Source of the DNA: an uncultured delta proteobacterium
GTDB lineage: Bacteria; Desulfobacterota; Binatia; UBA9968
Direction of reading: 5' to 3'
Assembly (NCBI GenBank): GCA_963804165.1
Contig: CAWDPO010000043.1
Location: 64,001-128,000 of the forward strand
Length of the DNA stretch: 64,000 nt
Shown here piece by piece: positions 4,282-59,292 of the stretch (within the stretch, counting starts at the first letter, position 1; every line of letters starts with the position of its first letter). The notes under the pieces were generated by a model that saw only the letters and a list, made by a program, of their open reading frames with translations, was not told where the DNA came from and ran no database searches. The position numbers and the translations under genes are program-made.

Positions 4282-4330
4282 ATTATCAAAATCGCTAAAG
4301 ATCGGCCGCTCGTTTCGTGCCTTTGCGAAA
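4282..4330. promoter_or_regulatory. putative enhancer (UAS) palindrome pair
   Basis: ATTATCA-AAAT-CGCTAAA (4282) and TTTCGTG-CCTT-TGCGAAA (4313), 31-bp offset, between divergent sigma-54 promoters. Confidence 0.55.
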
Positions 4331-4377
4331 TTAGCTCTGGTGACGGAGAGGCTCCGCAGCTTTTCGCGAAGCTCCAC

Positions 4378-4392
4378 GGGCATCTCTTTTGC
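4378..4392 (+). promoter_or_regulatory. sigma-54 promoter
   Basis: GGGCATC-TCTT-TTGC upstream of the cytochrome c gene. Confidence 0.65.
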
Positions 4393-4451
4393 GTTGCTGA
4401 TGATTCAGTTACTTTGCACTAATGGAATGCTTCGACTTGAAAAGGAGGGGG

Positions 4452-4859
4452 ATGAAGATGACGATCAGACTTTTTAGGTGGATCACCGCGGCAGTCGTGC
4501 TGTTTGCACCGATGATGCAATCTTTCGCGGACGAGAATGGCGGTAAAGAAATGTATTTGAAGTATTGCGCCTCCTGCCATGGGAGCCAAGGGAGGGGCGA
4601 CGGCCCGGTCAGTCGCGATTTGAAGGTCAAGGTTCCCGACTTGACGCTATTGCGAAGCAAGAACAAAGGCACTTACCCGCTGGATCGAGTGATGTCTTCG
4701 ATCGACGGCAGTCGCGTCGTGCGCGCGCACGGCGATCGTAACATGCCGGTGTGGGGCGAAGTGTTTAGGAAAGAACACGAAAAACAAAAATATACCGAGT
4801 TGACCTCACTTCTCAAAGCTAAGCTCATCGCCGAATATGTCGGCACATTGCAAAAATAG
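4452..4859 (+). CDS. periplasmic monoheme cytochrome c
   Basis: Signal peptide, CASCH heme motif, HG..MPVWG distal Met; RBS AAGGAGG. Confidence 0.9.
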   Translation: MKMTIRLFRWITAAVVLFAPMMQSFADENGGKEMYLKYCASCHGSQGRGDGPVSRDLKVKVPDLTLLRSKNKGTYPLDRVMSSIDGSRVVRAHGDRNMPVWGEVFRKEHEKQKYTELTSLLKAKLIAEYVGTLQK

Positions 4860-5044
4860 TTTGAAGTCTTTTGCGCTTTGGCTACGGCCCTCGGCTTCGC
4901 AATTTAGTCGGCGAACTCTTCACGATGTTTCATACGGCAGAAGTCTTTTTAATAACGTGACCAGCCCTTACCGAGACAAATATCCGCTCACGCCTAGGTA
5001 TAACGTGGCTGCTGTGGGTTTGGAGAAACTTTGAGAGCTCGGGT

Positions 5045-5863
5045 ATGAGCGAAATTTACGGTTTCGACACTTATTCACCCAAGGAAATCGCCGAACGCGT
5101 TGAGACTATTGGAGTAGCAAAGGCGCGGTTGCCGCTATTGTCGCAGATCATGTTGGGCGTTCTCGCGGGCGGCTTCATCGGCCTGGGGGCGCTTTGCTTC
5201 ACCCTCGTGACCAGCGACACCAGCCTCGGCTTTGCCGCCAGCCGGCTACTTGGCGGTCTGGCTTTCTCGCTGGGTTTGATCCTCGTGGTCGTGGCCGGCG
5301 CGGAGCTTTTTACTGGAAACAATCTTTTGGTAATGGCCTGGGCGAGCAAGCGAATCACCACCGGTGAGTTGTTAGAAAATTGGCTTGTTGTCTACCTGGC
5401 CGATTTCGCCGGCGCCATTGGCCTGGCCTGTCTCGTCTACTTCTCGGGCCATTGGGAAATGAACGACGGAGGGGTCGGTGCTAACATGGTGAAGATCGCT
5501 GCGGCCAAAGCCGCCATACCATTCTGGGAAGCCTTCTTTAAGGGAATACTTTGCAACATCCTAGTCTGTCTCGCGGTGTGGCTCGCGTTGGCCGGACGCA
5601 GTGTAATCGATAAGATCTTCGCGATTATTTTTCCCATCTCGGCATTCGTCGCCGCGGGCTTCGAACATAGCATCGCCAACATGTACTTCATCCCACTCGG
5701 CATTTTAGTCCAAGGACATTTCTCCGCTTCCGGCTCAGCAGCATTAAATTGGACGGGCCTCCTCACCAACCTCATCCCAGTGACGCTGGGGAATATGGTA
5801 GGTGGTGGCGTGATGGTCGCGGCTGTGTATTACCTCGTCTATCGTCATCACGCCGTCGATTGA
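5045..5863 (+). CDS. formate/nitrite transporter (FNT, FocA/NirC family)
   Basis: GAELFTGNN, KGILCNILVCLAVW, GFEHSIANM and LGNMVGG motifs. Confidence 0.95.
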   Translation: MSEIYGFDTYSPKEIAERVETIGVAKARLPLLSQIMLGVLAGGFIGLGALCFTLVTSDTSLGFAASRLLGGLAFSLGLILVVVAGAELFTGNNLLVMAWASKRITTGELLENWLVVYLADFAGAIGLACLVYFSGHWEMNDGGVGANMVKIAAAKAAIPFWEAFFKGILCNILVCLAVWLALAGRSVIDKIFAIIFPISAFVAAGFEHSIANMYFIPLGILVQGHFSASGSAALNWTGLLTNLIPVTLGNMVGGGVMVAAVYYLVYRHHAVD

Positions 5864-5895
5864 AAAATTTTTAGATAGCCCGCCTTGCCCGCTTA

Positions 5896-6366
5896 TCAAG
5901 CGGCTTTAGCCATCGTCCCAGCCCGCTCCCGCCGTGGAACTACCAAGACGGGGCACGGCGCACGTGCCACGACCTTTTCCGCAATGCTGCCCAAAATGAA
6001 GTGGTCGACGCCGGTCCGACCGTGAGTCGACATCACGATCAAATCGACGGCCTCGTCGGCCGCCTTCTCGACGATATTTTTGTGCGATGTGCCAAACTCA
6101 ACTGCGTAACGCACCTCGACCAAGTCGATGCAGTCGGCGAAATTATCGGCAACAAACTTTTCCAACAGCCGCCGGCTCTCTTCCAGCATGTCGTGATAAG
6201 CCGTGACTTTCGGCGGTTTGTCTTTCCACTCGCCACCGACTTCTATGGCGTGGTAAACGACAACTTCGGCGCTCGCATCGCGCGCCATCTCCAAGGCATA
6301 CCGAAGTCCAACCTTCGATATTTCGGAAAGGTCGGTCGGCGCCAATATCTTTTTGACTCTAGTCAT
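5896..6366 (-). CDS. universal stress protein (single domain)
   Basis: ILAPTDLS...MSTHGRTGVDHFILGSIAEKVV...PCPVLVV; RBS GGAGG. Confidence 0.95.
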   Translation of the reverse strand: MTRVKKILAPTDLSEISKVGLRYALEMARDASAEVVVYHAIEVGGEWKDKPPKVTAYHDMLEESRRLLEKFVADNFADCIDLVEVRYAVEFGTSHKNIVEKAADEAVDLIVMSTHGRTGVDHFILGSIAEKVVARAPCPVLVVPRRERAGTMAKAA

Positions 6367-6404
6367 AGGAACCTCCTTCGTTTTCGCTCTCGCTCCTGGG
6401 AGGT

Positions 6405-6908
6405 TCAAGTTTCCTTCAAGCTGTCCTTTAGAAACCCCAGGAGCTCTATGTGCTTTTCCGAATCTCGCATCATGGCATCCAGAAGAATTTTAAAGACGCC
6501 GTGGTAGTAACCGCTGCTCTCTTTCAGGAGCGTCTTGCATTCTTTTATGCCCTCTTTTTCAAGCTCGATAAATTCTTCAGTGCTTGCACGAAGCCGCCCG
6601 TTGAGCATGGCAAGGTCGGCCGTGCCCTCAAGGCTCCCTTCCGGCCTCGTCCAAGTGAGGCTGCCTTTCAGTGTGGCGATCATCGCGTGAATCACTGCAC
6701 GATGCTTCTCCTCATCGGAGATGACAAGCTGCAAGATAAACTTGGTGACCGGATTCGGTAACCCGCCCATGAGTGTCTTGTATTGTTCAATGGACTTTTC
6801 TTCCTTTGCTTCATGAGCTTCAAATTCATTGAGCAACCGCTCGATGGGAGATATTTCCGCCGATGCCTTCGTGCTGAACAGCCCTCCCATTCCATAGATC
6901 TCGTCCAT
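6405..6908 (-). CDS. ferritin-like (rubrerythrin-type four-helix) protein
   Basis: E...Y...SDEEKH and E...RDSEKH diiron-type ExxH repeats. Confidence 0.7.
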   Translation of the reverse strand: MDEIYGMGGLFSTKASAEISPIERLLNEFEAHEAKEEKSIEQYKTLMGGLPNPVTKFILQLVISDEEKHRAVIHAMIATLKGSLTWTRPEGSLEGTADLAMLNGRLRASTEEFIELEKEGIKECKTLLKESSGYYHGVFKILLDAMMRDSEKHIELLGFLKDSLKET

Positions 6909-6997: not shown

Positions 6998-7012
6998 GCA
7001 AAACACATGCCA
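6998..7012 (-). promoter_or_regulatory. sigma-54 promoter
   Basis: TGGCATG-TGTT-TTGC on the minus strand. Confidence 0.8.
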
Positions 7013-7060: not shown

Positions 7061-7108
7061 TCTCTTAGTTGTGAGAACTTTACTTGTTGGTTTCGCAGCT
7101 GTGCGAAT
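7061..7108. promoter_or_regulatory. putative enhancer (UAS) palindrome pair
   Basis: TCTCTTA-GTTG-TGAGAAC (7061) and TTTCGCA-GCTG-TGCGAAT (7091), 30-bp offset. Confidence 0.6.
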
Positions 7109-7216
7109 AAAAATTCGGCGAGGCGCTGCTTTCATTACGATAATTGCGCGCTTGAGCACCGGCACGAAAATCGCTCATGTGAACGATCGTCGGACTAGTC
7201 CGGCTGTTTTTTAGCA

Positions 7217-9442: not shown

Positions 9443-9457
9443 GCAAAAAATATGCCT
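9443..9457 (-). promoter_or_regulatory. sigma-54 promoter
   Basis: AGGCATA-TTTT-TTGC on the minus strand. Confidence 0.7.
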
Positions 9458-9505: not shown

Positions 9506-9554
9506 TTTCGCACCTTTGAAAAAATTTGACCGAACTTTTCTCGTCCTTGGCAAT
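9506..9554. promoter_or_regulatory. putative enhancer (UAS) palindrome pair
   Basis: TTTCGCA-CCTT-TGAAAAA (9506) and TTTCTCG-TCCT-TGGCAAT (9537), 31-bp offset. Confidence 0.65.
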
Positions 9555-9602: not shown

Positions 9603-9617
9603 TGGCACAGACAGTGC
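9603..9617 (+). promoter_or_regulatory. sigma-54 promoter
   Basis: TGGCACA-GACA-GTGC. Confidence 0.75.
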
Positions 9618-10972: not shown

Positions 10973-11254
10973 ATGTTATGTGATTCTCACAGAGACAGGC
11001 AACCTCCTGAATTTGCTAAGCTGCGGGACTGTCTCTCTGCAACCTGGGTCACCGCCGGCGTCCTTACGAAGCTGGCTAAGCATCTTGCTATACTTGCCAG
11101 TCTCACGATCCTAGGCGAATCCACGGGTCGAATCGCCGTCGGCCAACTCGCCATCTTCATTCTTATCGTCCTGGCCGCCTTCTCCCACACGCTCGGACGC
11201 ACGCTCCGGTTGCACTTGCGTAGGCAAACCGCCTTGAGCAAGAGCGTGCCATGA
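10973..11254 (+). CDS. small two-TM membrane protein coupled to the P-type ATPase
   Basis: Two hydrophobic segments; stop overlaps the ATPase start (ATGA); start uncertain. Confidence 0.45.
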   Translation: MLCDSHRDRQPPEFAKLRDCLSATWVTAGVLTKLAKHLAILASLTILGESTGRIAVGQLAIFILIVLAAFSHTLGRTLRLHLRRQTALSKSVP

Positions 11255-14200
11255 TCGCCGAGCGCCTTGAAGCAGCAAAGATTGTCTTCGGTCTTAAGGG
11301 AAATCTTTCTGAAGTCATCGATATCCTCTGCCGTCGCTCCAACCTGTCTGATCTCGCCGCCCGATTTCGCTCTCACAAACCGGACAAAGGAACCGAGCGC
11401 TACAGTTACCTCGGCGACGGCATCGCCGTGCCCCATCTGCGTATCGACAATTTGCCGGCCCCCGAGTTGATCCTCGGGCTTTCGCCTGAAGGTCTTACCT
11501 TCAACAATAATAAAATCCATGTTGTATTGCTCCTGGCTACGCCCGCGGACCAGCCGGCAGAGCACCTGCAACTCTTGCAGCGAGTCTGCTCGCTGCTGCC
11601 GGCGGTACGCGATGAGCTGCTGGCGCAACGCGATGCGGGCCGGGTGCTCCGACTCATTGCGCGTGCCGAGCAGCAATCCGCTTTGCCGACTTATCTGAAT
11701 CTCACTCAGGAACAGGTCGGTTTCGAGCTCGAAACCGACCTCGGCAATGGTTTATCCACTGCCGAAGCGAGCAGCCGCCTGGCGCACTACGGTCGCAATG
11801 TTTTGCAGCGCGTTCGCCACGAGTCCTGGCATCTCAAGCTATTGCGCAACTTGTTTAGCTTTTTCGCCGTGCTGCTCTGGATAGCCGCCTTGCTCTGCTT
11901 TGTTCCCGGTGTCGACTTACCCCAGCTCGGCATCGCAATTCTGGTGGTCATCCTGGTCAACGGGCTTTTCGCCTTCATGCAAGAATATAAATCGGACCGC
12001 GCCCTGGAAATGTTGCAGCAACTGATCGGTCAAAAGTGCCGTGTCATACGCGACGGAGCGTTGTCGGAGATCGACGCCGGGGAGCTCGTGCCTGGAGATC
12101 TCATCATGCTCGAAGAAGGCGACTTGGTGCCGGCCGATTCGCGCTTGCTCGAAGCCTTTGAAGTGGAAGTCGACAACTCATCGCTCACCGGCGAATCGAC
12201 GCCTGCGCGCCGCTACAAATCCGACCAGCCGGTTTTGATTTCCGGTAAATTCCTGTGGATCGAGCTGCCGAATATTGTCTTCGCCGGCACTTCGCTGCTG
12301 CGCGGCCGCGCCCGCGCGGTGGTTTTCGGCACGGGGATGAATTCAGAGGTCGGCAAGATCGCCAACCTCACGCAAGATATCCAAAGCGAGCCGAGCCCGC
12401 TGCAAAAACAATTGCGTGGCACGGTCTACGCGATCGCCGCCCTCGCCGGCGGCCTGGGCTTGGTATTTTTGTTTTTGGGCTGGCTCGTCGGCGGACTGAC
12501 GTTTCTCGAAGCTTTCGTGTTTTTCATCGGCCTTTTCGTCGCCAACGTGCCCGAAGGGCTGCTACCGACTGTCACGCTGTCACTCGCGATGGGCGTGCAG
12601 CGTATGGCCAAGCGCCACGCTCTGGTAAAAAGCCTGCCGTCGGTGGAAACCCTGGGATGTACGACCGTCATCTGCTGCGACAAGACCGGCACACTGACGC
12701 AGAATCTCATGATGGCCAACGAGGTCGCCGTGGACGGCAAGTTTGTCGAAATCACCGGGGTGGGTTACCGGCCGCGCGGCGAATTTCTCCAGGACGGCAA
12801 AGCGCTCTCCCTCGATGGAATCTCCCAATGGAGCACGCTGCGGCGCCTGCTCGACTGCGCGTTTATTTGTAATAACGCCAAGGTCGAACCAAGCGACGCC
12901 GATTACCGCGTGATCGGCGATCCCACTGAAGGCGCTCTGATTTGCCTAGCCGAAAAGGCCGGCGTGCGCGGCACGCATCAACGCTTGCATCTCAATCCTT
13001 TCGAGTCGATCCGCAAAAGAATGAGCGTGGTAGTGAAACCGTATCGCCAACTTGAACCGACCATTTACGTCAAAGGCGCTCCGGTGGAGACCCTGCAACA
13101 GTGCGATCGCATTCACTGGGGCGACGAGGTGCGTTCACTGACGGACTCGGATCGGCAAAGAATCCTTGCAGAAAATGACGCCATGGCCAATCGCGGCTTG
13201 CGCGTGCTCGCGTTCGCGTATCGCGACGGCGTGGAATTGAACGGCGCTCCCTACACGACGACGGATGTCGAGACGAGCCTGGTTTACCTAGGCTTGGTGG
13301 CGCTCTCCGATCCGGTGCGGCCCGAAGTGCCGGAAGCGATTCACGCCTGCCATACAGCGGGAATTCGCGTCATCATGGTGACCGGCGATTACGCGCTCAC
13401 GGCTGCCAGTATCGGCACACAAATCGGTCTCGGAGAGTCTGCTCCTATGCCGATTTTCACCGGCGCTCAGGTCGCCGAGATGGCCGATGAGCGGCTGGTA
13501 AAAATTCTTACCCAAGGTGAAACGATCTTTGCCCGCGTCGCGCCGGAGCATAAATTGCGCGTCGTATCTATCCTCAAACAAATGGGCGAGATCGTCGCAG
13601 TGACCGGCGACGGTGTCAATGACGCGCCGGCATTGAAGAAAGCCGATATCGGCATCGCCATGGGGTTACGCGGTAACGACGTCGCCAAAGAGGCTTCGCG
13701 CATGATTTTGACCGACGACAACTTCAGCTCCATCGTCGCCGCCATCGAAGAGGGCCGCGCCATTTTCGACAACATCAAACGCTTTGCCGCCTACGTCCTC
13801 AACAGCAACCCGCAGGAAATGTATCCGTACATTTTCTGGGTACTGTTCCCTGACATGCCGCTGGCGATGACGATCATGGGCGTGTTGGCGGTCGACGTCG
13901 GAACCGATCTGATTCCGGCGATGGGCTTGGGCATCGAGCCGCCGGAAGAAGGGATCATGGAGCGTCCGCCGCGGCGGCGCGACGAAAAGCTATTATCGAT
14001 TAATTTTGTCCTGCGCTCCTACTTCGTGCACGGAACACTGCTCGCCCTCAGCTGCTATGCGACTTACTATTATATGGGCTGGGTGCTTGGCACATGGCGT
14101 CCCGGCAAGAGTCTCAGCGCCATGCCGGCGAGTCCGTCCGGACTCCAATTCGCGGCAGCATCCGCTGCTTATTTGCAGACGCTCACCGCTTACTTTTTCC

Positions 14201-14769
14201 CGACGGTCACCACGCAGATCGCCAATGTGCTCTGCAAGCGCTCGTGGCGTAGCTCGCTCTTTTCAATTAACTTTTTGAACCCTGCGCGCCGCCAAGAAGC
14301 GCTGGAAGCGATTGCGACGTGGCGCCCGCCGCACTATACGGCGCGAGTGCGCATCGACTACCATGTGAAAGGGGCGACGGAATTTGACATGGCGCGCGCC
14401 TTTTTCGCGCTCGCGGGCGAGCTGATTGTCCTGCCGTTCCGATTCATTTGGCTGCTCTTGTTGCAATCGCTGACGCGCCTCGAGCGCCCGATCATCGTTC
14501 CGTGCACCACCTGGCTCGCGCGTTTTCTCGAACGCCACTACATTATCTTTAATTTCATCTCTAACCCGCTCATCGATCTTGGCATCTTGTTCGAGCTTGT
14601 GCTTTGCTATCTCTTCTTCTACACGTCGCTCGCCGATATCTACTACTTCGCGCCTGTACCGTGGCATGTCTATCTCTTCGCATTTCATGGGACGGTGGTG
14701 CTGTTCGCCTTCGAAGAGACAAAGAAATACTACCGGCGGAAAGGCTACAAATTAGAGTTTTTGGCATAG
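11251..14769 (+). CDS. P-type cation ATPase (P2C, Na+/K+-ATPase-like) with N-terminal PTS EIIA domain
   Basis: LGDGIAVPH (EIIA phospho-His motif); VDNSSLTGES, VANVPEGLLPTVT, CCDKTGTLT, TGDGVNDAPAL, NSNPQE and DVGTD motifs. Confidence 0.92.
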   Translation: MIAERLEAAKIVFGLKGNLSEVIDILCRRSNLSDLAARFRSHKPDKGTERYSYLGDGIAVPHLRIDNLPAPELILGLSPEGLTFNNNKIHVVLLLATPADQPAEHLQLLQRVCSLLPAVRDELLAQRDAGRVLRLIARAEQQSALPTYLNLTQEQVGFELETDLGNGLSTAEASSRLAHYGRNVLQRVRHESWHLKLLRNLFSFFAVLLWIAALLCFVPGVDLPQLGIAILVVILVNGLFAFMQEYKSDRALEMLQQLIGQKCRVIRDGALSEIDAGELVPGDLIMLEEGDLVPADSRLLEAFEVEVDNSSLTGESTPARRYKSDQPVLISGKFLWIELPNIVFAGTSLLRGRARAVVFGTGMNSEVGKIANLTQDIQSEPSPLQKQLRGTVYAIAALAGGLGLVFLFLGWLVGGLTFLEAFVFFIGLFVANVPEGLLPTVTLSLAMGVQRMAKRHALVKSLPSVETLGCTTVICCDKTGTLTQNLMMANEVAVDGKFVEITGVGYRPRGEFLQDGKALSLDGISQWSTLRRLLDCAFICNNAKVEPSDADYRVIGDPTEGALICLAEKAGVRGTHQRLHLNPFESIRKRMSVVVKPYRQLEPTIYVKGAPVETLQQCDRIHWGDEVRSLTDSDRQRILAENDAMANRGLRVLAFAYRDGVELNGAPYTTTDVETSLVYLGLVALSDPVRPEVPEAIHACHTAGIRVIMVTGDYALTAASIGTQIGLGESAPMPIFTGAQVAEMADERLVKILTQGETIFARVAPEHKLRVVSILKQMGEIVAVTGDGVNDAPALKKADIGIAMGLRGNDVAKEASRMILTDDNFSSIVAAIEEGRAIFDNIKRFAAYVLNSNPQEMYPYIFWVLFPDMPLAMTIMGVLAVDVGTDLIPAMGLGIEPPEEGIMERPPRRRDEKLLSINFVLRSYFVHGTLLALSCYATYYYMGWVLGTWRPGKSLSAMPASPSGLQFAAASAAYLQTLTAYFFPTVTTQIANVLCKRSWRSSLFSINFLNPARRQEALEAIATWRPPHYTARVRIDYHVKGATEFDMARAFFALAGELIVLPFRFIWLLLLQSLTRLERPIIVPCTTWLARFLERHYIIFNFISNPLIDLGILFELVLCYLFFYTSLADIYYFAPVPWHVYLFAFHGTVVLFAFEETKKYYRRKGYKLEFLA

Positions 14770-15921: not shown

Positions 15922-16795
15922 TCAAGCCGCCCGGATCAGTAGCACGGGATCGCGCGAGTGTTGGATGACTTTTTCCGCGACGCTGCCCAACACCCAGCGT
16001 CCGATTCCCGACCGCCCGTGAGTTGACATAGCGATCAAATTGTTCGGCGTTCTCAGGGCGATGTCGATGATCTCCCCGGCGGCGTCACCTTGGATGGCGG
16101 TTCCGATAACCCGCTCGAATCGGTCGGCGCGCAGTCCCGCGACTTTGCCCTCCAGGTATATCTCCGCCTCTTTTTTGAGTTCCTCACGATACACAGTCGG
16201 GCCCTGGGCGATCACGCCGTCGGCGAGGAGGTACGCGTCGGTCGGCAACGTGTAAGTGCGCAGGAGGTGAATCTCGAGCTTCAATGCCTTCGCCAGCGCG
16301 CAAACGTGCGGCAGAGTCTTTTCTGCCAGGCCGGAACCATCTAACGGTACAAAGGCCGTGTCCAGCCTGACCGGCGCCGCGGAGTCGGCGCCTTCGCTGG
16401 GGCGAATCAACAGCAGCGGATTCGCCGCGGTTTGAATCACTTTGCTGGCAACGCTGCCGATCAGCCAACGGCGCGGCCCCGACAATCCGTGCGTCGCCAT
16501 GGCGATGAGACAGGAAGGGTCAGCGCTGGCACGATCGATGATCACTTCCGCCGGCTTGCCGACCTCGACTGCTGTGGCGACCGGTACAGAAGAGGAGCGA
16601 AAATATTTCGCCGCGGTTTCTTCCAGGTACTGATCGTCCGGCTGAGGCGGGCGAAAAGGGCGGCCGCGCGTCCGGATCCGTAATGCGCAATAATTCCACA
16701 GGGGCGCGATACGCCTCGGCAATCACCCGCGCGTAGGGAAGGACCTGCTCGGAAAAATTTGAGCCATCCAACGGCACCAGCATTTTTTTGTACAT
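15922..16795 (-). CDS. tandem (two-domain) universal stress protein; frameshifted near 16640-16700
   Basis: MYKKMLVPLDGS N-terminus and two THG..G....GSV motifs split across ORFs 16520..16813 and 15922..16722. Confidence 0.88.
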
Positions 16796-16826
16796 GCCCT
16801 TACTCCAAACCAAAACCAGCGGTTCG

Positions 16827-17732
16827 TCAACTGGGCGCCCGCAAGATCAGGACCGGGTCGCCCGAGTGGCGCACCACCGTCTCGGTGACGCTACCCAACA
16901 CCCAACGCTTCACTCCCGATCGTCCATGGGTGCAGATGGCGATGAGGCTGTCCGGTCTGCCGCGCGCATATTTGATGATTTCATCGGCGCTGAACCCTTC
17001 CTTGGATGCGCACGAAACTCTTTCCACGCCGGCTTTTCTTAAGACGTCAGCCTTCTCTTCCAAGTATTGGCTTACGTCGGTACCGATCGCGGCGCCTAAT
17101 TCATCTTGATTGACGGTATAGCTTCCGCCAGCGCCGTAAATGTCATAAGGAACGCCGTACGCGCGAAATAGAATCACCTCAAGGCCGAGTGTCTTGGCGA
17201 GCTCGACGACGGCCGGCAGCGCCTGCTCGGCCAAAGCAGAACCATCCAAGGGCACCACGATGGAGTTGAGAAGCGCTTGCCCGCCGGCACGCGACTCAGG
17301 CGCGGGCCGGACCAAGAGCAACGGATTGCTTGTGCCACGCAAGACCTTTTCCGCCACGCTCCCCAGCAACCAGCGATGGATACCGGAACGGCCATGCGTC
17401 GCCATCATGATTAACGTGCCTGGATCGGCCGCCGCCGCGTCAATGATGCTGTTCGCGGCACCTCCGTTTTCCAGTCTTGACTGGCAGCCATCCGGGAAAA
17501 CATTCTTGGCGACTCTTGCCAAATACTCGCCGCACCGGCGCGTCTCTTCATCGACCAAATTGTTCATGTAGAATCGCTCGATCGTCGCAAGACTGCGTGC
17601 GAGCTCCGCCGTGTCGACCACGGCAATCAATTCCACCGGGAGCTCTAATTGAGTGGACCAAGAGCGCGCGAGGGGCAACACGGCCTCGGCGGTTTTCGAT
17701 CCGTCCAACGGAATAAGAATCTTTTTATACAT
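16827..17732 (-). CDS. tandem universal stress protein
   Basis: Two PLDGS and two THGRSG...LGSV motifs; intact. Confidence 0.95.
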   Translation of the reverse strand: MYKKILIPLDGSKTAEAVLPLARSWSTQLELPVELIAVVDTAELARSLATIERFYMNNLVDEETRRCGEYLARVAKNVFPDGCQSRLENGGAANSIIDAAAADPGTLIMMATHGRSGIHRWLLGSVAEKVLRGTSNPLLLVRPAPESRAGGQALLNSIVVPLDGSALAEQALPAVVELAKTLGLEVILFRAYGVPYDIYGAGGSYTVNQDELGAAIGTDVSQYLEEKADVLRKAGVERVSCASKEGFSADEIIKYARGRPDSLIAICTHGRSGVKRWVLGSVTETVVRHSGDPVLILRAPS

Positions 17733-17759
17733 CCCGACCACCTCTCCCATCACCGTCGT

Positions 17760-18665: not shown

Positions 18666-18694
18666 GGCTCTTCGCTCCAAACGTGGCCGAATTG

Positions 18695-21158: not shown

Positions 21159-21173
21159 GCAATCGCTATGCCA
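21159..21173 (-). promoter_or_regulatory. sigma-54 promoter of the hsp20-USP operon
   Basis: TGGCATA-GCGA-TTGC on the minus strand. Confidence 0.85.
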
Positions 21174-21211: not shown

Positions 21212-21260
21212 TTTCGCATTGTTGAAAATTTTCGGCGACAGGTCTCCCAAAGCTGCAACT
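21212..21260. promoter_or_regulatory. putative enhancer (UAS) palindrome pair
   Basis: TTTCGCA-TTGT-TGAAAAT (21212) and TCTCCCA-AAGC-TGCAACT (21243), 31-bp offset. Confidence 0.65.
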
Positions 21261-21317: not shown

Positions 21318-21332
21318 TGGCATTAGTCTTGC
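21318..21332 (+). promoter_or_regulatory. sigma-54 promoter of the por operon
   Basis: TGGCATT-AGTC-TTGC. Confidence 0.85.
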
Positions 21333-50489: not shown

Positions 50490-51842
50490 TTAGTCATTAA
50501 TGCCAAGCTTTTCGAGCTTGCGGTATAGCGTCGACAGACTCAACCCGAGCAGCTCGGCTGCGCGTATTTTGTCGCCGCCGGTTTTTCCGATGGTGCGCTC
50601 GATATGAGCTTTCTCGTAAAGCTCAACCGCTCTGGTAAGATTGTCTTCAGCGCCGAATTCGTCAGTGCCGTTCTGCTGACCAGGTAAATCCGCCGGCTTG
50701 ATCCATTCACCATCGCCGAGAATCATCGCTCGCTCTAAAACGTTATCCAGCTCGCGGATGTTTCCCTTCCACGGAAGCGACATGAGGATCCGCATGGTCG
50801 CGCTGTCGACGCCTTTGTAATTTGTCTTCATCTCCGCATTATGCCGATGAATAAGATGCTCCACTAGCCCAGGGAGGTCATCGAGTCGCTTGCGTAGAGG
50901 TGGAATGTTGATCTCAAATACGTTTAGACGATAAAATAAATCCTCGCGGAAACGCCCCGCTTCGACTTCGCTCTTGAGATCGCGGTTGGACGCCGCGAGA
51001 ATACGTACATTCACCTTGACCGGGGTCGTGGCTCCCACCGGCAATACGGTTTTCTCTTCGAGCACGCGCAGAAGTTTGGGCTGCAAACTCAACGGCATCT
51101 CGCCGATTTCATCGAGGAAGATCGTGCCACCCCGCGCCCTTTGAAACAATCCTTCTTGAGAACCGACTGCCCCGGTAAAAGAGCCCTTCATATGGCCGAA
51201 GAGCTGGCTCTCCAATAAGTTGTCGGGGATCGCGCTGCAGTTGACGGGCAGAAACACATTATCTTTACCGAGACTGCCGGCGTGAATAGTTCGGGCCACA
51301 ACTTCTTTTCCCACACCACTCTCGCCACTGATGAGCACTGTGGTCGGCGTCGGCGCGACCTTCCTTACCATGTTAACGATTTCTTGCATCGCGGCGCTGC
51401 GTCCGAGCGGTCGATCCGGGCTGAAATAGCTATTAATTTCTCGGCGTAGTAACTGATTCTCCCACGCCAATTTTCTATGCTCCACCAATTGCTGAACCTT
51501 CCGAAGAACCTCAGCAAAGAGAAGCGGCTTGAGCAAGTAATCTTGCGCCCCCAAGCGGATCGCCTCAATGGCCGTCTCGACGGTGGCGTGGGCTGACATG
51601 ATCATCACCAAAGTTTGCGGTGAGACGTCACGCACATGCTTCATCACAGCGATTCCGTTTGCGCCGGGCATCATCAGATCCGTGAGAACTAAATCGAGAT
51701 CGAGCTTGTCGATCAGGGAAATCGCAGCCTTTCCGTCGGCCGCCTCGTGAACCTCATATCCTTCACCCCTTAAAAGCTCGACCAAGCTTTCGCGCGCACT
51801 TTCCTGATCTTCCGCGACTAATATGGACCCATTCGAATTCAT
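50490..51842 (-). CDS. sigma-54-dependent response regulator (NtrC/AtoC family: REC-AAA+-Fis HTH)
   Basis: ILVAED, DLMMP, GESGVGKE, GSFTGA, FLDEIGE, FREDLFYRL, WKGNIREL and AAELLGLSLSTLYRKL motifs. Confidence 0.97.
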   Translation of the reverse strand: MNSNGSILVAEDQESARESLVELLRGEGYEVHEAADGKAAISLIDKLDLDLVLTDLMMPGANGIAVMKHVRDVSPQTLVMIMSAHATVETAIEAIRLGAQDYLLKPLLFAEVLRKVQQLVEHRKLAWENQLLRREINSYFSPDRPLGRSAAMQEIVNMVRKVAPTPTTVLISGESGVGKEVVARTIHAGSLGKDNVFLPVNCSAIPDNLLESQLFGHMKGSFTGAVGSQEGLFQRARGGTIFLDEIGEMPLSLQPKLLRVLEEKTVLPVGATTPVKVNVRILAASNRDLKSEVEAGRFREDLFYRLNVFEINIPPLRKRLDDLPGLVEHLIHRHNAEMKTNYKGVDSATMRILMSLPWKGNIRELDNVLERAMILGDGEWIKPADLPGQQNGTDEFGAEDNLTRAVELYEKAHIERTIGKTGGDKIRAAELLGLSLSTLYRKLEKLGIND

Positions 51843-51854: not shown

Positions 51855-51952
51855 ATTCCCAAGAATGCGAAAAGGGATTATCGGCCTTGCCAAATGTGCA
51901 AATCCACAACCCAATTCTATAGAAAATCATTTCATTTTCTATCGTTGAGCAA
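51855..51952. promoter_or_regulatory. three UAS-type palindromes upstream of the sigma-54 activator gene
   Basis: ATTCCCA-AGAA-TGCGAAA (51855), CTTGCCA-AATG-TGCAAAT (51886, +31) and TTTTCTA-TCGT-TGAGCAA (51935). Confidence 0.65.
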
Positions 51953-51984
51953 TTATAAGGCCAGGAGCTAAGTTGTATTCCGAG

Positions 51985-54237
51985 CTAGTTCCGCGGAAGG
52001 GCAATCACAAAGTTGGTTCCTTTTCCATGCTCGCTGCTATAGCTAATTGATCCACCATGGGCCCTGACAATTTGCTGAACGATCGAGAGTCCGATCCCGG
52101 TGCCTTGCGGTTTGGTAGTAAAGAATGGCTCGAAAATATCTATGCCTGGAGGAATCCCCGTGCCGGTATCCGAAATTTCCAGAACGACTCTGTCGTCCGA
52201 AGTTGACCCTTTAATCGAGATTCTTCCACCCCCGGGCATCGCCTCCGCGGCATTCTTGGTGAGATTGAAGATTACCTGCTTCATTTTATCGATGTCGACG
52301 GTGACGGTGGGCAGGTTCGACGGAAAGGAACATTCTACTTGGATTCCCAACTCAGCATAGCGCGGCAACTCAATTTCGATCGCTTCTCCGACTAGAGCAG
52401 TGACACTCGTCCGTTGGAAATCGAACTTCTCCCGGCGGGACAGAGAACGGAACTGTTCGAGCAGCGTGCTCAGACGCGATACCTCGTTGTGCAGTCGGTT
52501 CACGGTCGATGTTATCTGGGTATCGAGCAGGTTCGACTGTTTACGGAGACGTTGCTCGAGAAGCTGGATTGTCAACGACATGCCGTTTAATGGGTTGGCG
52601 AGCTCATGGCCGATTTTGGCCGCGGTCGTTCCGATGGCAACCAGCCGTTCGTTCTCCACCAGTTGTGCTTGCAACCGCGCCTTTTCTGAAACGTCGCGAA
52701 TGAACGCGGCATATTGGACCTCCTTGTCTTCCGCGATCTTGGTCACTGACAACTCAATCGGAAACAGCTCGCCATTTTTCCGCTTGGCGGTCACCGTTCG
52801 TATGCGGCCGATGGCACGGGCTTCGCCCGTCTTTTCATAACGTTCGATATACCCGTCGTGCTCCGTTGCGTGAGGCTCGGCCATGAGCAAATTTACCTTT
52901 TGCCCTACGATCTCATTTCTCGTATAGCCAAATATTCGTTCCGCCGCCGGGTTGAATAGCACAACTCTTCCTTGACGGTCGATGGAGAGGACAGCGTCTT
53001 GGGTCGTTTCGATGAGACTCTGCAGCCACGCTTGGCCGCGTCTCACTTCGGAGATATCGCGGATGAAAGCGGCGTATTGAACTTCTTCGCCTTCACCCGT
53101 TGCAACTTTCGTAATTGAAAGCTCGATGGGAAAAGTCGCGCCGTTCTTGCGCCGGGCTTCCACGGTCCGGATACGGCCGATGGCGCGCGCCTCGCCGGTT
53201 CTTTCGTAACGTTCAATATAAGAATCGTGCTCAGCCGCATACGGCTCGGCTATCAAGACGTTCACTTTTTGTCCTTGGATTTCAGCCTTGCTGTAACCGA
53301 AGATCCGCTCCGCTCCCGGGTTGAACAGCACGATTCGCGCCTGTCGATCAATCGAAACCACCGCATCCTGGGTAGTCTCGATTAGACGCTCGATCCAGTT
53401 TGTTTTGCGTCGAATGTCTGTTTCTGCTTCCTTCTGCGATGACACGTCGCGAAAAACCACGACCACGCCAATAATCGTGCCGTCGGATCTGATCGGCGCA
53501 GCGCTATAGATTACAGCAAAAAACGTCTTGTCTTTGCGAATAAACACATCCTCGTGATTCGATAGAAGCAACCCGCGCTGCAATACCTGCAGCCCTGAAC
53601 ATTCGGAGGCAGGAAAGGGCCTGCCGTCTGGATGTTGGTAATGTGTCATTTCGTGCATCTTCCGGCCAAGCAACTCGGCGCTCGACCAACCAAAGAGGCG
53701 CTCTGCGGCGGGATTGATGTAGGTTACCAAACCTTGGGCATCGACGGTGTAAAGCCCCTCGCCCATGTTGGCCATAACCGACTGATTGAATTCCAGCGCG
53801 CGGCGAAGCTCGGCCCTGCCCTCAAGCGCGGCCTGTTCGGCGAGTCTACGATCGTGGGTTTCGACCACGCCGCCGACGTATCCAAGGAAAGCGCCGTCGG
53901 CGCTATATTGCGGCACGCCGCGGTCGACTACCCAGCGATACTCGCCTGAACGATGACGCAGGCGGTACTCCATGACAAAAGGTTCGCGGCGGTCGAAAGC
54001 GAAGGTGTAACTGTCTAGGCAGCGCCGAAGATCGTCCGGATGCACGCCATCAGCCCAACCGTTGCCGAGCTCCTGCTCCATTGTGCGCCCGGTAAACTCC
54101 AGCCAACTTTTATTGAAATAATTGCAAAGCTTGTCGGTTGCGGATTGCCAAACGAGGACTGGTAGCGCGTCGGCCATAGCGCGATACCTTTCTTGACTCT
54201 CGCGGAGGACCTGCTCGGCTTCTTTTTCTATACTCAT
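51985..54237 (-). CDS. cytoplasmic four-PAS sensor histidine kinase with two FixL-type heme-PAS domains; start uncertain
   Basis: No TM; PAS3 and PAS4 contain EP...HD(S/G)YIERY..TGEARAIGRIR; H-box AKIGHELANPL, NAAEAM, DTGTGI, FFTTK..GTGIGL. Confidence 0.93.
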   Translation of the reverse strand: MSIEKEAEQVLRESQERYRAMADALPVLVWQSATDKLCNYFNKSWLEFTGRTMEQELGNGWADGVHPDDLRRCLDSYTFAFDRREPFVMEYRLRHRSGEYRWVVDRGVPQYSADGAFLGYVGGVVETHDRRLAEQAALEGRAELRRALEFNQSVMANMGEGLYTVDAQGLVTYINPAAERLFGWSSAELLGRKMHEMTHYQHPDGRPFPASECSGLQVLQRGLLLSNHEDVFIRKDKTFFAVIYSAAPIRSDGTIIGVVVVFRDVSSQKEAETDIRRKTNWIERLIETTQDAVVSIDRQARIVLFNPGAERIFGYSKAEIQGQKVNVLIAEPYAAEHDSYIERYERTGEARAIGRIRTVEARRKNGATFPIELSITKVATGEGEEVQYAAFIRDISEVRRGQAWLQSLIETTQDAVLSIDRQGRVVLFNPAAERIFGYTRNEIVGQKVNLLMAEPHATEHDGYIERYEKTGEARAIGRIRTVTAKRKNGELFPIELSVTKIAEDKEVQYAAFIRDVSEKARLQAQLVENERLVAIGTTAAKIGHELANPLNGMSLTIQLLEQRLRKQSNLLDTQITSTVNRLHNEVSRLSTLLEQFRSLSRREKFDFQRTSVTALVGEAIEIELPRYAELGIQVECSFPSNLPTVTVDIDKMKQVIFNLTKNAAEAMPGGGRISIKGSTSDDRVVLEISDTGTGIPPGIDIFEPFFTTKPQGTGIGLSIVQQIVRAHGGSISYSSEHGKGTNFVIALPRN

Positions 54238-54337
54238 GTCCCACACCACCAGTACACAGACACTGTTCTTCTCCTCAATTCGCGAAACGGGACCAAACAG
54301 ATTACTCGCAGTTTGGAGGCAGGAATTGGAGGATACC

Positions 54338-54376
54338 TTTCGTAGCTTTGGCGATCCATTTGCCAAATCTGAGAAA
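54338..54376. promoter_or_regulatory. putative enhancer (UAS) palindrome pair
   Basis: TTTCGTA-GCTT-TGGCGAT (54338) and TTTGCCA-AATC-TGAGAAA (54359), 21-bp offset. Confidence 0.5.
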
Positions 54377-54478: not shown

Positions 54479-54493
54479 TGGCACATGCTTTGC
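54479..54493 (+). promoter_or_regulatory. sigma-54 promoter
   Basis: TGGCACA-TGCT-TTGC. Confidence 0.85.
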
Positions 54494-54541
54494 GCAAAAA
54501 GAAGGAGAAAGCCATTAAGGCTAGGGCGACAAGAGGTATTT

Positions 54542-54655
54542 ATGGTAAGCGAAACCGAACTTTTCTATCTTGTGCTGCTGACGCTGCTGACGCTGATCAT
54601 GCATTTGATCCTTTCACGGAAGCACCGTCGGGATGACAAGCATTCTCACGCGTAG
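54542..54655 (+). CDS. single-TM microprotein, copy 2 (37 aa)
   Basis: MVSETELFYLVLLTLLTLIMHLILSRKHRRDDKHSHA*; RBS GAGG. Confidence 0.72.
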   Translation: MVSETELFYLVLLTLLTLIMHLILSRKHRRDDKHSHA

Positions 54656-54702: not shown

Positions 54703-55830
54703 TCATACAGTGGATGAGCGGGTCTTGTTGCGATCCGCCACGCGACCGCGGCAAGACTTTACATCCGGTAAGGGGCAGTATCGTCGCAGAATCGGATCCA
54801 GGCAACTGTAGCGGTACGGAAAGCGATGCTGGTAAGCGGAGTGAACGACGCTTTGAAGCTCCGTAGTTGAAAGCTCGATATCGTTTCGGTGGTTCCATTC
54901 AAGTAGTTTTTGTTCTGTTTCATCTCTGGATAACCCCGTCAGGCGAAATTCCGAGGCAAGCCTGATTGCGCAATTATTTCGATAACCGGGCTCGATGTGA
55001 CTTTCCCAGATCTTGCGCACTCCCGCGCAAACGAAGTCGAGTTTAGACAAATCAGGCGGACGGGGAATGCGATAGACAAACGGCTTGCGCGTGAGCTTGG
55101 TCGTTTGGCGCCGAACTCGACTGAACAGTTCCGCCGCTTTCGGATTCGCGCTGATATCGACGCGCGAAACCAAGCCGGTCTCATCGGTTACCTTCAAAGG
55201 TCTCGCCGTGCGCGCGATCTCGCGAATCTGCTTGGGGTCTAACCTCTCAATTTCGCTCGGAGTCAGAATTATTTTATATAACTTGGACTTCTCGTGAATC
55301 GTGTTTGGCAATCGTAGCAAGCGAACTCGATCTTTGATCGAGAGATCGACGGTTTCGCGAACGCGTTCGGGCAGCTCATGCGCTAAATGGCGCCGAATAG
55401 AGTCGAAAATCATCGGCAGATGCTTCGAAGGCGCGATTCGACCGAAAAGCCGAGTATCCAGCAAGATATGAAACCCTTTGAGGCCGCTGAAATAAATCTG
55501 TAACGCCTGGGTACGTAGCGCCCACCGTTCGAGCAAAAAAGCACTCAAGCGCTTGGCTGCCTCCAGCGCCGGCGTTATCTCCACATGATCCAGGTCAATG
55601 GGTAAGAACGGGGCCCAGGCTTTGCCCTCAAAGCCGGCAATACTCGGCGCCCTGTCATCCTGAGCACTCATGTAAGTCAGGACTTCATCAGAGAAGAAAA
55701 AATAGGTGGCATAGCAGCCGTAGTAGTTAAATGATTTCGCCAGCGCCGGGACCTCCGTGATCGAAACAATATGGTTTCGAAAGCCCTTTTGATAGTGCGC
55801 CGCAAAATCCACGAAATGAAAGCGCCGCAT
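54703..55830 (-). CDS. archaeo-eukaryotic primase (AEP)-like protein with primase C-terminal domain
   Basis: PIDLD (motif I), YFSGLKGFH (motif II), DLSI...LLRLPNT (motif III); C-terminal GYRNN..IRLA...L.EWN; Cys cluster. Confidence 0.8.
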   Translation of the reverse strand: MRRFHFVDFAAHYQKGFRNHIVSITEVPALAKSFNYYGCYATYFFFSDEVLTYMSAQDDRAPSIAGFEGKAWAPFLPIDLDHVEITPALEAAKRLSAFLLERWALRTQALQIYFSGLKGFHILLDTRLFGRIAPSKHLPMIFDSIRRHLAHELPERVRETVDLSIKDRVRLLRLPNTIHEKSKLYKIILTPSEIERLDPKQIREIARTARPLKVTDETGLVSRVDISANPKAAELFSRVRRQTTKLTRKPFVYRIPRPPDLSKLDFVCAGVRKIWESHIEPGYRNNCAIRLASEFRLTGLSRDETEQKLLEWNHRNDIELSTTELQSVVHSAYQHRFPYRYSCLDPILRRYCPLPDVKSCRGRVADRNKTRSSTV

Positions 55831-56038
55831 AACTTGATTATAACGCCCGTCTTGCGCGACCTGAAACCATAGCCACCTCTCGGCACAATCTCGATTGCGT
55901 GATTCCGAAGAGCAAAACCCCGGCCGCTCGGACCGTAGTGCTCGACAGCGTGCTCGATCCAACACGGCGAAACTGCCTCAATCGAACCGTTCCCACCAGC
56001 GATGCAATCTCATGTGAACTCACGCGCAGTGTTGGCGT

Positions 56039-56087
56039 TTTCCTACCAGTGCAAAATCTAACTGCTGAATTTCTCATTAGTAAAAAC
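56039..56087. promoter_or_regulatory. putative enhancer (UAS) palindrome pair
   Basis: TTTCCTA-CCAG-TGCAAAA (56039) and TTTCTCA-TTAG-TAAAAAC (56070), 31-bp offset. Confidence 0.6.
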
Positions 56088-56148: not shown

Positions 56149-56163
56149 TGGCACAACTCGTGC
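56149..56163 (+). promoter_or_regulatory. sigma-54 promoter
   Basis: TGGCACA-ACTC-GTGC. Confidence 0.75.
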
Positions 56164-56898: not shown

Positions 56899-56941
56899 TT
56901 GTCGCCACCGCTCGGCTAAAGCGAAAGTCAAGGAGGGAACT

Positions 56942-57562: not shown

Positions 57563-57588
57563 TATTCTCGTGAAGGAGGATCTGTCTT

Positions 57589-58017
57589 ATGTCATTGCAA
57601 AATTTCTGTCGCAAACCTTTGGTTAAAGTTTCGCCGGATACGAACATAACCAAGGCCTGCCGCCTTATGGCAAAGAACAAAGTCGGTTGCTTGGTCGCTG
57701 AGAAAGACGGCGAGCTCTGCGGGATTATCACTGACCGCGACATCGCGCTGCGGGTGGCTGGCGCACGGAAAGATCCGCAGGAAACATTGGTCAAAGACGT
57801 TATGACGCCGGATCCAATTCGTATTTCCGCGGATAAAGATTTACCCCAGCTCATGGCTCTCATGCACGCCCATCACGTGCGGCGCATGCCGATCGTGAAC
57901 GGCTTCAGTACGACGCTGGGAATCGTCACGTTCGACGATCTGATCGCTCAGGTGGGTAACCAGATGTCGGAGATGGGCAAGACGATAGCCGAGGAATTTT
58001 TTCAAGGGAACGCTTAA
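57589..58017 (+). CDS. CBS domain-pair protein (Hrp1/Rv2626c-like)
   Basis: VGCLV...GIITDRDIALR and VRRMPIV...GIVTFDDL. Confidence 0.92.
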   Translation: MSLQNFCRKPLVKVSPDTNITKACRLMAKNKVGCLVAEKDGELCGIITDRDIALRVAGARKDPQETLVKDVMTPDPIRISADKDLPQLMALMHAHHVRRMPIVNGFSTTLGIVTFDDLIAQVGNQMSEMGKTIAEEFFQGNA

Positions 58018-58032
58018 GAAAGGAGAATAGCC

Positions 58033-58530
58033 ATGAGCGATATCACCGAAGCCCTGCACGAAGAACATCAGGCCCTCTTGCCTCACATCGATGAGTTGCG
58101 CGTGATTGCCGATCGGTTCGATGAAATCCCGCCACATGACGTTCGGTACAACCTGGACCGCGTTTACGAATTTCTCACCGAGCACTTGATACCTCATGCG
58201 GAAGCTGAAGAGGACGCGCTTTACCCGGCGGTTGCGAAGATTCTCGGCTCCCCTCAGGCGACCGCGACGATGAGCCGCGATCATATCGAAGTGAGCCGGT
58301 TGACGGAACAACTGGGGTGGCTGCGCTCTGAAGCAACAATCTTCGACGTAGAGCAAATGAAGAATTTGCGCCGGGTATTGTACGGTCTCCATGCACTGCT
58401 CAGAGTTCATTTCGCCAAGGAAGAAGAGATCTACTTGCCGCTGTTGGAGAACCATTTGAGTAATGGCGAGGCGCAACGCTTGTTCCACAAGATGGCGCAA
58501 TCGGCCCAGCACGGTCATCTCGTCCGCTGA
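58033..58530 (+). CDS. hemerythrin (HHE) domain protein
   Basis: EEH...PHAEAEEDALYP...DH...HFAKEEEIYLP. Confidence 0.9.
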   Translation: MSDITEALHEEHQALLPHIDELRVIADRFDEIPPHDVRYNLDRVYEFLTEHLIPHAEAEEDALYPAVAKILGSPQATATMSRDHIEVSRLTEQLGWLRSEATIFDVEQMKNLRRVLYGLHALLRVHFAKEEEIYLPLLENHLSNGEAQRLFHKMAQSAQHGHLVR

Positions 58531-58633
58531 CCGCGAATTATCGATTCAGCTAGTCGTGCCGACCTTTTATGATTGACGCTCACCTCGCCACTGGCTTCCA
58601 CACTCTCGGAGGTGCCGCTCGGAACGGCTCGTT

Positions 58634-59125
58634 TCATGCAGCATCGGTCGACTGAGGATCGCTACGGGCTAGCATGTCACGAATTTGAGCCCGATGCTTT
58701 TTGCTGTCGCTTTCAATGCCTTCGAAAAGCTCCGCGATGTCAGGAAACTCGCGACCGAGCACCGGCAGATCGTCTTTCAACTCTCCGGCGCAGCGTTGCT
58801 CTTCTTCGAGATCCGTTCGCAGATAAAATCAGCTGTTGGGTTCTTTGGCAACGTGGATCGGAATAACGTTAGGGAGCTTTTCTCCTAGATCTCTTATTTT
58901 CGCGCCAATCATTTCAGCGTGTCTTTCCTCTTCTCCGGCCAGGCCGAGAAGCATATCGCGAAACTGAGGATAACGCATTCTTTCGGCATGCTGACGGTAG
59001 CGCATACCGTGCTGCTTTTCTCTGAGATAGCGATGGCGCAACACGTTCAGCATGGCCGCACGCGATTCCTCTTTAGAGCCAAACAGCCTTGCCCACCAAT
59101 CCGACGGTTTCACTCGGAGCGCCAT
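58634..59125 (-). pseudogene. ferritin-like protein with an in-frame TGA at 58829-58831
   Basis: Paralog of 59883..60374; the frame continues after NS* as FYLRTDLEEEQRCAGEL...DSKKH...MLARSD; the paralog has Trp at that position. Confidence 0.78.
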
Positions 59126-59169
59126 AGCGTCCTCCTTTCTGAAGGACCAATCTCTATGTACATAAAAAC

Positions 59170-59184
59170 GCAAAGTTCAAGCCA
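59170..59184 (-). promoter_or_regulatory. sigma-54 promoter
   Basis: TGGCTTG-AACT-TTGC on the minus strand. Confidence 0.75.
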
Positions 59185-59243
59185 GCGATTAACCGCTCTG
59201 GATTCACGAATAGCGGTCCAAAGCGCGCCAAATCGGATAAGCC

Positions 59244-59292
59244 ATTGTCATTGTGAAGAATCGACCCAAGGAAGATTCGCAGGAATGCAATT
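59244..59292. promoter_or_regulatory. putative enhancer (UAS) palindrome pair
   Basis: ATTGTCA-TTGT-GAAGAAT (59244) and ATTCGCA-GGAA-TGCAATT (59275), 31-bp offset. Confidence 0.55.

Follow-up and report, generated by a model that had tools for sequence, protein, structure and literature searches.

In the NtrC-type enhancer, two palindromes bound by dimers with Fis-type helix-turn-helix (HTH) domains lie about three turns apart, ~80-140 bp upstream of a -24/-12 promoter. The NtrC site itself is TGCACC-N5-GGTGCA. Enhancers shared between divergent sigma-54 promoters are known from E. coli zraP/zraSR and hyc/hyp, and a downstream sigma-54 enhancer is known from Bacillus subtilis rocG. Here, we analyzed a 64,000-nucleotide stretch of DNA (the window) from an uncultured delta proteobacterium of the Binatia, namely positions 64,001 to 128,000 of contig CAWDPO010000043.1 (C43:64001-128000 of the genome G000; 7.5 Mb, 46 contigs, assembly 81% complete). 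The window possesses paired palindromes of the type TTTCBCA-N4-TGVGAAA, which adjoin sigma-54 promoters, and a gene for an NtrC-family activator at 50490-51842. We consider it probable that the paired palindromes are the enhancer (upstream activating sequence) of a sigma-54 regulon, bound by the 50490-51842 activator, with a low-oxygen or dormancy output driven by a haem kinase.

As at the NtrC enhancer of glnAp2, the paired palindromes here are about three turns apart and near a -24/-12 promoter. However, the motif differs from the NtrC site, and the genes are those of stress and dormancy, whereas NtrC serves a nitrogen regulon. Also unlike the NtrC enhancer, about half of the enhancers here serve two divergent promoters. 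In contrast to zraP/zraSR, hyc/hyp and rocG, both the shared and the downstream arrangement recur here in one large regulon, and the downstream one is used for the activator's own gene.

Activators of the NtrC family act through oligomerisation and DNA looping, as also described in a report on Myxococcus xanthus (PMC11841059). According to this report, the NtrC-like regulator NmpR binds a pair of GCGCA-N5-TGCGC palindromes (14-15 nt apart). In hypoxia, it activates genes for CBS, universal stress protein (USP), hemerythrin and cbb3 proteins together with its own operons. The sensor of NmpRSTU is a haem-dependent protoglobin kinase that feeds a phosphorelay, and the regulon comprises 7 promoters (PMC11841059). 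NmpRSTU is the closest published system that we found. Both systems have an NtrC-like regulator, a haem-type kinase (predicted here), a GCA...TGC core and closely set palindromes (13 nt apart here), as well as CBS, USP and hemerythrin targets and the regulator's own gene; the likeness is taken from the published description. However, an N4 centre with TTTC/GAAA flanks is found here instead of GCGCA-N5-TGCGC. Furthermore, a FixL-like haem-PAS kinase, no relay and ~36 predicted promoters stand against the protoglobin, the phosphorelay and the 7 promoters described for NmpRSTU. Among the top-ranked titles and abstract starts of a literature search, no described enhancer of this sequence was found, and the search gave no paper joining Binatia and sigma-54; supplements and subscription journals were outside its scope.

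A sequence-only reading of the window had picked 22 palindrome sites at 11 loci by eye, with the consensus TTTCGCA-N4-TGCGAAA. The coordinates and letters of all 22 sites agreed with the sequence. The sites carry 1-7 mismatches to the 14 specified bases. The poorest are 59244 (7 mismatches) and 31663 (6), and 5 mismatches each were counted at 4282, 9537, 21243, 36356, 51886, 56070, 7061 and 54338. With up to 3 mismatches allowed, the motif occurs 14 times in the window against 6.23 ± 2.33 times in 100 dinucleotide shuffles, none of which (0/100) reached 14.

The spacing was analyzed genome-wide. Pair counts at the other offsets of this DNA, which have the AT-rich intergenic background in common with the 31-bp pairs, provided the internal control. 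TTTCNCA-N4-TGNGAAA with ≤3 mismatches per site had 3325 sites in the 7.5-Mb genome. Among these, 17 pairs were detected at offset 31. Each of the remaining offsets between 8 and 80 gave 0-9 pairs, mostly 0-3. Of the 17 pairs, 13 are located beyond the window, in sequence that the sequence-only reading never covered. When the mismatches summed over both sites were limited to ≤5, 14 pairs at 31 bp stood against a mean of 0.75 per offset (20-60); with ≤6, the numbers were 23 against 1-9 at other offsets. Partners of 227 strong single sites, scored with a matrix that had been trained on 31-bp seeds, were found at 31 bp (18), 30 bp (3), 32 bp (3) and 33 bp (2), and at most twice at any other offset of 19-70. 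A trimmed composite pattern (≤3 mismatches) gave 13 matches in the genome at 31 bp against 0-4 at neighbouring offsets. The enrichment of the 31 ± 1 bp spacing over other offsets is 10-20 fold. Thus, the motif and the 31-bp offset both stand out against shuffled and AT-matched backgrounds. The spacing had been called invariant; it is strongly enriched throughout the genome, but it is really 31 ± 1 bp and not strictly fixed.

A position matrix from 46 sites of the 23 best pairs gave the improved consensus TTTCBCA-N4-TGVGAAA. Position 5 of the half-site, read as G before, accepts any base except A (G 0.35, C 0.31, T 0.30). This single-site matrix was preferred to an iterated 61-bp composite matrix, which drifted to coding periodicity at low threshold (1584 "hits"). 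Each site is palindromic and spans 18 bp, the centres of its half-sites being 11 bp apart; this inverted-repeat format suits a dimeric HTH protein. The 31-bp pairing corresponds to three helical turns.

The sigma-54 pattern TGGCAY-N5-TTGC was matched 41 times in the window and 23.5 ± 4.6 times in shuffles, and the better matches have an extended TTGCGC. Scans of the window and the genome recovered the sigma-54 promoters that had been claimed beside the pairs. The promoters flanking palindrome pairs point outward, at distances of 53-151 bp. Divergent promoter pairs are present at 4202(-)/4378(+), 7012(-)/7160(+), 9457(-)/9603(+), 21173(-)/21318(+), 36274(-)/36435(+) and 41032(-)/41261(+), and single promoters at 31526(-), 54479(+), 56149(+) and 59184(-). 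The majority of the enhancers are flanked by two divergent sigma-54 promoters, a feature that the sequence-only reading had missed.

Genome-wide, an outward sigma-54 promoter was detected within 300 bp in 23 of 44 composite matches, where ~1.3 would be expected from 755 promoter-like matches. Conversely, a composite scoring ≥16 was found upstream of 32 of 723 matrix-scored promoter-like matches, as compared with 1 in displaced control windows. In total, ~24 enhancers and ~36 promoters are predicted. The enhancers are mostly on contig C43 at 35-156 kb, a cluster of ~120 kb; the others are at 399 and 431 kb of C43 and on contigs C40 and C5. The rpoN gene was also found in the genome. The distance from the pair centre to the T of TGGCAC falls into classes near 53, 64, 74, 85, 95 and 105 bp. 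Helical phasing was detected, with a Rayleigh R of ~0.5 at periods of 9.75-11.25 bp and a permutation p of 0.00075.

The loci in the window, together with the activator and kinase genes (domains by Pfam), are as follows.

4282-4330: palindrome pair between promoters 4188-4202 (-) and 4378-4392 (+); targets, Zn-ribbon protein / cytochrome c and formate/nitrite transporter
7061-7108: palindrome pair with 30-bp offset, between promoter 6998-7012 (-) and weaker promoter 7160-7174 (+); ferritin-like 167-aa protein and USP / glyceraldehyde-3-phosphate dehydrogenase (GAPDH)
9506-9554: palindrome pair between promoters 9443-9457 (-) and 9603-9617 (+); targets, USP / two CBS proteins
21212-21260: palindrome pair between promoters 21159-21173 (-) and 21318-21332 (+); targets, Hsp20 / subunits of pyruvate:ferredoxin oxidoreductase (POR)
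31632-31680: good site and weak partner, 130 bp from promoter 31512-31526 (-); target, lipoyl/E2-type acyltransferase
36325-36373: palindrome pair between promoters 36260-36274 (-) and 36435-36449 (+); targets, malic enzyme and USP / DUF2267 protein
41094-41142: palindrome pair between promoters 41018-41032 (-) and 41261-41275 (+); on the + side a small open reading frame (ORF), then an OmpR-type two-component pair and three PMT_2 glycosyltransferases
50490-51842 (-): response-regulator enhancer-binding protein; REC, Sigma54_activat, AAA_lid_14 and HTH_8 domains, GSFTGA loop
51855-51903: palindrome pair (51855-51872, 51886-51903) between promoter 51949-51963 (-) and the activator ATG
51949-51963 (-): sigma-54 promoter of the activator, TGGCCT-N5-ATTGC, from the promoter scan; conserved in 11 genomes
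51985-54366 (-): multi-PAS histidine kinase; several PAS, HisKA and HATPase_c
54359-54376: single good palindrome, ~100-110 bp upstream of the perfect sigma-54 promoter 54479-54493 (+)
56039-56087: palindrome pair upstream of promoter 56149-56163 (+); operon of Zn-ribbon protein, three CBS proteins and hemerythrin
59244-59292: weak candidate pair, 84 bp from promoter 59170-59184 (-); target, rubrerythrin-like protein

By the position matrix, a grading that is partly circular, both sites are good at 8 of the 11 loci (4282/4313, 7061/7091, 9506/9537, 21212/21243, 36325/36356, 41094/41125, 51855/51886 and 56039/56070). The pair with a 30-bp offset, 7061/7091, is among them. Locus 31632 has a good site (16.1) and a weak partner at 31663 (6.3), and 59244 (4.8) / 59275 (10.6) is a weak pair. 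The proposed 21-bp pair 54338/54359 did not hold as a pair: 54359 is good (16.5) and its partner 54338 is weak (7.9).

In sister genomes, the arrangement is conserved. In the 200-kb stretches around the activator orthologue (82-84% identical) of G014 and G015, 31-bp pairs stand out again, and outward sigma-54 promoters lie 53-104 bp from 9 of 9 pairs at 31 bp. Orthologous counterparts of the 36325 pair are present in both. Where such pairs precede the Hsp20/POR and DUF2267 orthologues, the palindromes and their spacing are kept and the 13-bp spacers differ.

Nine sequences from 8 genomes were aligned upstream of Hsp20; L034 (unpublished genome), L040 (too short), L043 (55% paralogue) and L044, L045 and L047 (partial or paralogous) were left out. 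The only conserved blocks are five: the divergent promoter, the distal palindrome, the proximal palindrome, the Hsp20 promoter and the ribosome-binding site. The distal palindrome is cTCGCA-N4-TGCGAGA and the proximal one TTTTTCAA-N3-TGCGAAA, with one single-base gap between the palindromes across the 9 sequences. The same analysis was performed in 11 genomes for the 200 bp that precede the activator gene; L011 had been dropped for its short flank. The TGGC and TTGC of the sigma-54 promoter are invariant, and both palindromes lie downstream of it at a fixed distance. The spacers and flanks of the pairs are unrelated between loci and drift between genomes.

Motif matches were counted in sister genomes with an activator orthologue (G014, 15; G015, 11; G019, 14; G003, 7; G008, 4) and in those without an orthologue of >80% identity (G012, 10; G021, 4; G007, 3; G004, 3; G018, 2). 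The reversed-pattern control gave 0 matches in all 10 of these genomes.

The product of 50490-51842 scored under all NCBIfam equivalog cut-offs (AtoC, 413 against 714; NtrC, 388.6 against 558.6; ZraR, 363.9 against 760). Orthologues with 80-93% identity were found in 15 of the 24 sister genomes searched (14 of 23 without the unpublished G005), and beyond the genus the identity of the best matches does not exceed 49%. Among ~29 PF00158 genes in the genome, 50490-51842 is the only one on contig C43, the home of the site cluster. The 51855 pair had been thought to lack a promoter. However, a conserved sigma-54 promoter, 51963(-), was found, and the pair lies downstream of it. Judged from this sequence context, the pair is predicted to be a downstream, autoregulatory enhancer of the activator gene. 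The earlier proposal, in which the palindromes form the enhancer of the local NtrC-family activator, is supported by these in silico results, and 50490-51842 is the protein that we would expect to bind.

The adjacent kinase gene lies beside the activator in the window and in G014. Its true start is probably the ATG at 54237, because the first 43 residues of the long ORF are not protein-like. The last two PAS domains (~residues 322-440 and 446-560) are tandem near-duplicates that match FixL haem domains, which are also the best PDB matches of the kinase PAS domains (E = 6e-29). A His aligns in the comparison with FixL (1dp6, 2cmn, 1y28), and the kinase has Arg at two positions that are Arg in 1dp6_A and Ala in 2cmn_A and 1y28_A. 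We take the His to be the proximal haem ligand, and the pocket roles of this His and the two Arg are likewise assumed. As in FixL, two kinase PAS domains thus keep the His and both Arg of the haem pocket. In contrast to FixL-FixJ, the kinase carries two haem-PAS copies and further PAS domains, and its partner is a sigma-54 activator instead of a FixJ/LuxR-type regulator. The FixL equivalog cut-off of NCBIfam is 850 bits, whereas the kinase scored 381.5. The Pfam scan of the kinase gave PAS, HisKA and HATPase_c and no globin domain.

By Pfam, several USPs are encoded directly behind the promoters and more further along the operons. The targets also include two Hsp20 proteins, many CBS-domain proteins, DUF2267, hemerythrin, rubrerythrin/ferritin-like proteins and a ribosome hibernation factor (S30AE). 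Metabolic targets are GAPDH, POR, malic enzyme, a lipoyl-E2 protein, and cytochrome c with the formate/nitrite transporter; cardiolipin synthase (PLD), two nucleotidyl transferases, TctC and a YbaK-type editing domain are further targets. This gene make-up suggests a low-oxygen or dormancy programme. In the DosR/DevR regulon, several USPs, alpha-crystallin/Hsp20, a CBS protein and a ribosome hibernation factor are under a haem kinase. DosR is a LuxR-type regulator that acts at sigma-70-type promoters through another box, and its kinases use GAF-haem domains. The gene content here resembles that of DosR in the USPs, Hsp20, CBS proteins and ribosome hibernation factor. However, sigma-54 promoters and an NtrC-family activator take the place of those of DosR. 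The USP link is also mentioned in the NmpR report (PMC11841059).

The system may work as follows. Dimers of the 50490-51842 activator would bind both palindromes on one helix face, and in the sister genomes dimers of a receiver-less paralogue probably bind the same way. The bound dimers would assemble into an active AAA+ ring. By looping over a short and helically phased distance, the ring would open sigma-54 closed complexes at one or two divergent promoters, so that the regulated genes are presumably activated. The downstream enhancer at the activator's own sigma-54 promoter would provide feedback on the activator level. The adjacent kinase is the likely input, and its FixL-type haem-PAS pair may switch it on as oxygen falls. 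The output would be a dormancy or low-oxygen programme of USPs, Hsp20, CBS proteins, hemerythrin, rubrerythrin, the hibernation factor, POR, GAPDH, malic enzyme and cardiolipin synthase.

The palindromes could instead be enhancers bound by another sigma-54 activator, with the local regulator only a target. The binder would then be among the remaining ~28 activators, or would be a receiver-less paralogue missing from the assembly. The genome encodes ~29 activators in an assembly that is 81% complete. Furthermore, sister genomes possess a receiver-less sigma-54 activator of 314 aa with 55-57% identity to the window activator. Its gene is surrounded by the same kind of motif pairs, one of which drives it. 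The motif matches of genomes without the orthologue cluster beside this gene; by coordinates, such clustering holds in 6 of 6 genomes checked, and it was verified by scanning 3 loci (G014, G012, G021). Its operon consists of the enhancer, a sigma-54 promoter, a ferritin-like 168-aa protein, a 167-aa protein and the activator (L137:7182-9399 in G014; L138; L139). The window retains an orthologue (66% identical) of the first gene, for the 168-aa protein, at 6405-6908, without the paralogue. However, tblastn against this 81% complete assembly found no receiver-less paralogue, the best matches being the window activator and a paralogue on contig C40. The recognition helices of the receiver-less paralogue (SLSSLYRKI) and the window activator (SLSTLYRKL) are nearly the same. 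From this near-identity and the same surrounding motif, it follows that the motif belongs to a small activator clade and not to one protein, and the window activator is the only assembled member of the clade in this genome. A conserved pair at the gene of the window activator in 11 genomes also speaks against another binder. Thus, we regard another activator as an unlikely alternative.

The C40 paralogue, 59% identical, is the closest in-genome relative of the window activator. In its upstream region (G000:C40:200450-200800), a sigma-54 promoter of its own is accompanied by a palindrome of another sequence, TGTCCTG-N4-CAGGACA, and no high-scoring site of the TTTCBCA-N4-TGVGAAA type was detected there. 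These sequences suggest a separate DNA specificity, and the C40 paralogue was rejected as the binder of the pairs.

Much less probable is that the palindromes bind a regulator other than a sigma-54 activator, for example a repressor or a global Crp/Fnr-type protein, and merely co-occur with the promoters. An 18-bp palindrome with an N4 centre is the format of many dimeric regulators, and the position of the 51855 pair downstream of its promoter would also fit a repressor. However, sigma-54 promoters require an activator bound nearby, and the Hsp20 alignment contains no other conserved block between the divergent promoters. The three-turn pairing and the promoter phasing suit ring assembly and looping, and the motif is, to our knowledge, unlike the Fnr or Crp consensus. 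Chance pairs in AT-rich intergenic DNA, or copies of a repeated mobile element, are scarcely credible and were rejected: single sites are degenerate and two of the loci first listed are weak, but other offsets in the same DNA are 10-20 times rarer, the reversed-pattern control is empty in 10 genomes, and spacers and flanks show no relationship from one locus to another and have drifted from genome to genome.

Several points weigh against binding by the 50490-51842 activator under control of the adjacent kinase. There are ~29 activators, and the assignment of the motif to this one depends on its position and on the pair at its own gene. Because the motif is also present in genomes without an orthologue of >80% identity, the phyletic test does not single out the window activator; in G004, motif matches were detected and neither activator type was found. 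The position matrices scored the very sites used to train them, and are partly circular to that extent. The phased promoters are not independent, because divergent pairs share an enhancer. For the kinase, G015 has no orthologue of ≥55% identity within 200 kb of the activator. As we read the alignment of 11 loci, 5 of them have a sequence upstream of the activator promoter that does not align with the 3′ end of the window's kinase gene. Oxygen sensing by the kinase is suggested by the conserved residues of its PAS domains.

A wider picture may be drawn, which we put forward tentatively. In an uncultured soil genus of the Binatia type, a whole dormancy or low-oxygen programme of ~36 promoters would run through sigma-54, with a FixL-type double haem-PAS kinase, bidirectional phased enhancers, self-feedback, and a second, receiver-less activator, co-transcribed with two ferritin-like proteins, acting on the same sites. 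Two signals would then converge on one set of sites, in a sigma-54 counterpart of the mycobacterial DosR regulon. The motif, the ~24 enhancers, the ~36 promoters and the candidate sensor and activator form a testable regulon map for a lineage without a cultured member, and suggest how these soil bacteria survive oxygen loss. The loci are also a natural data set on enhancer geometry, including the three-turn pairing, the phased promoter distance, bidirectional sharing and a downstream autoregulatory enhancer. The mechanism is well known from NtrC-type enhancers, so that what is of value here is the regulon and its lineage, not a new principle.

Some further observations concern the genes and promoters around the pairs. 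The two ~168-aa ferritin/rubrerythrin-like proteins encoded with the receiver-less activator may control it in trans, as PspA controls PspF. A sigma-54-like promoter at 3141-3155(-) (TGGCATACGCATTGC) lies upstream of a gene for a CarboxypepD_reg-domain protein. The nearest 270 bp contain no palindrome like those of the pairs, and this promoter may serve another activator. Behind the promoter 54479(+) (TGGCACATGCTTTGC), the region 54479-54655 contains only a ribosome-binding site and a 37-codon hydrophobic ORF (start 54543), converging on the PriCT_1 gene; the ORF region may yield a small membrane peptide, an antisense RNA or a small RNA. The sequence CTTTGGCGATCCATTTGCCAAAT at 54345-54370, which overlaps the 54338/54359 sites, reads as a weak sigma-54 promoter on either strand. 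The PriCT_1 (primase C-terminal) gene itself, at 54703-55965(-) beside the activator locus, is kept there in G014 and G015 (61-65% identity). Because of this conservation, it is a fixed neighbour and not a stray mobile-element gene.

Four USP genes, three of them tandem-USP, stand in a row at 15922-19469(-), and the window has at least 8 USP genes in total. Apparently split or truncated regulon genes are located at 21366-22219, 35652-36218 and 30435-31277: the POR gamma subunit is in two overlapping ORFs, the malic enzyme consists of the N-terminus only, and the E2 catalytic domain is short. A P-type cation ATPase of 1172 aa, encoded at 11251-14769(+), has a PTS_EIIA_2 domain at its N-terminus. 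Such a fusion is unusual in view of the connection of EIIA(Ntr) with sigma-54 systems.

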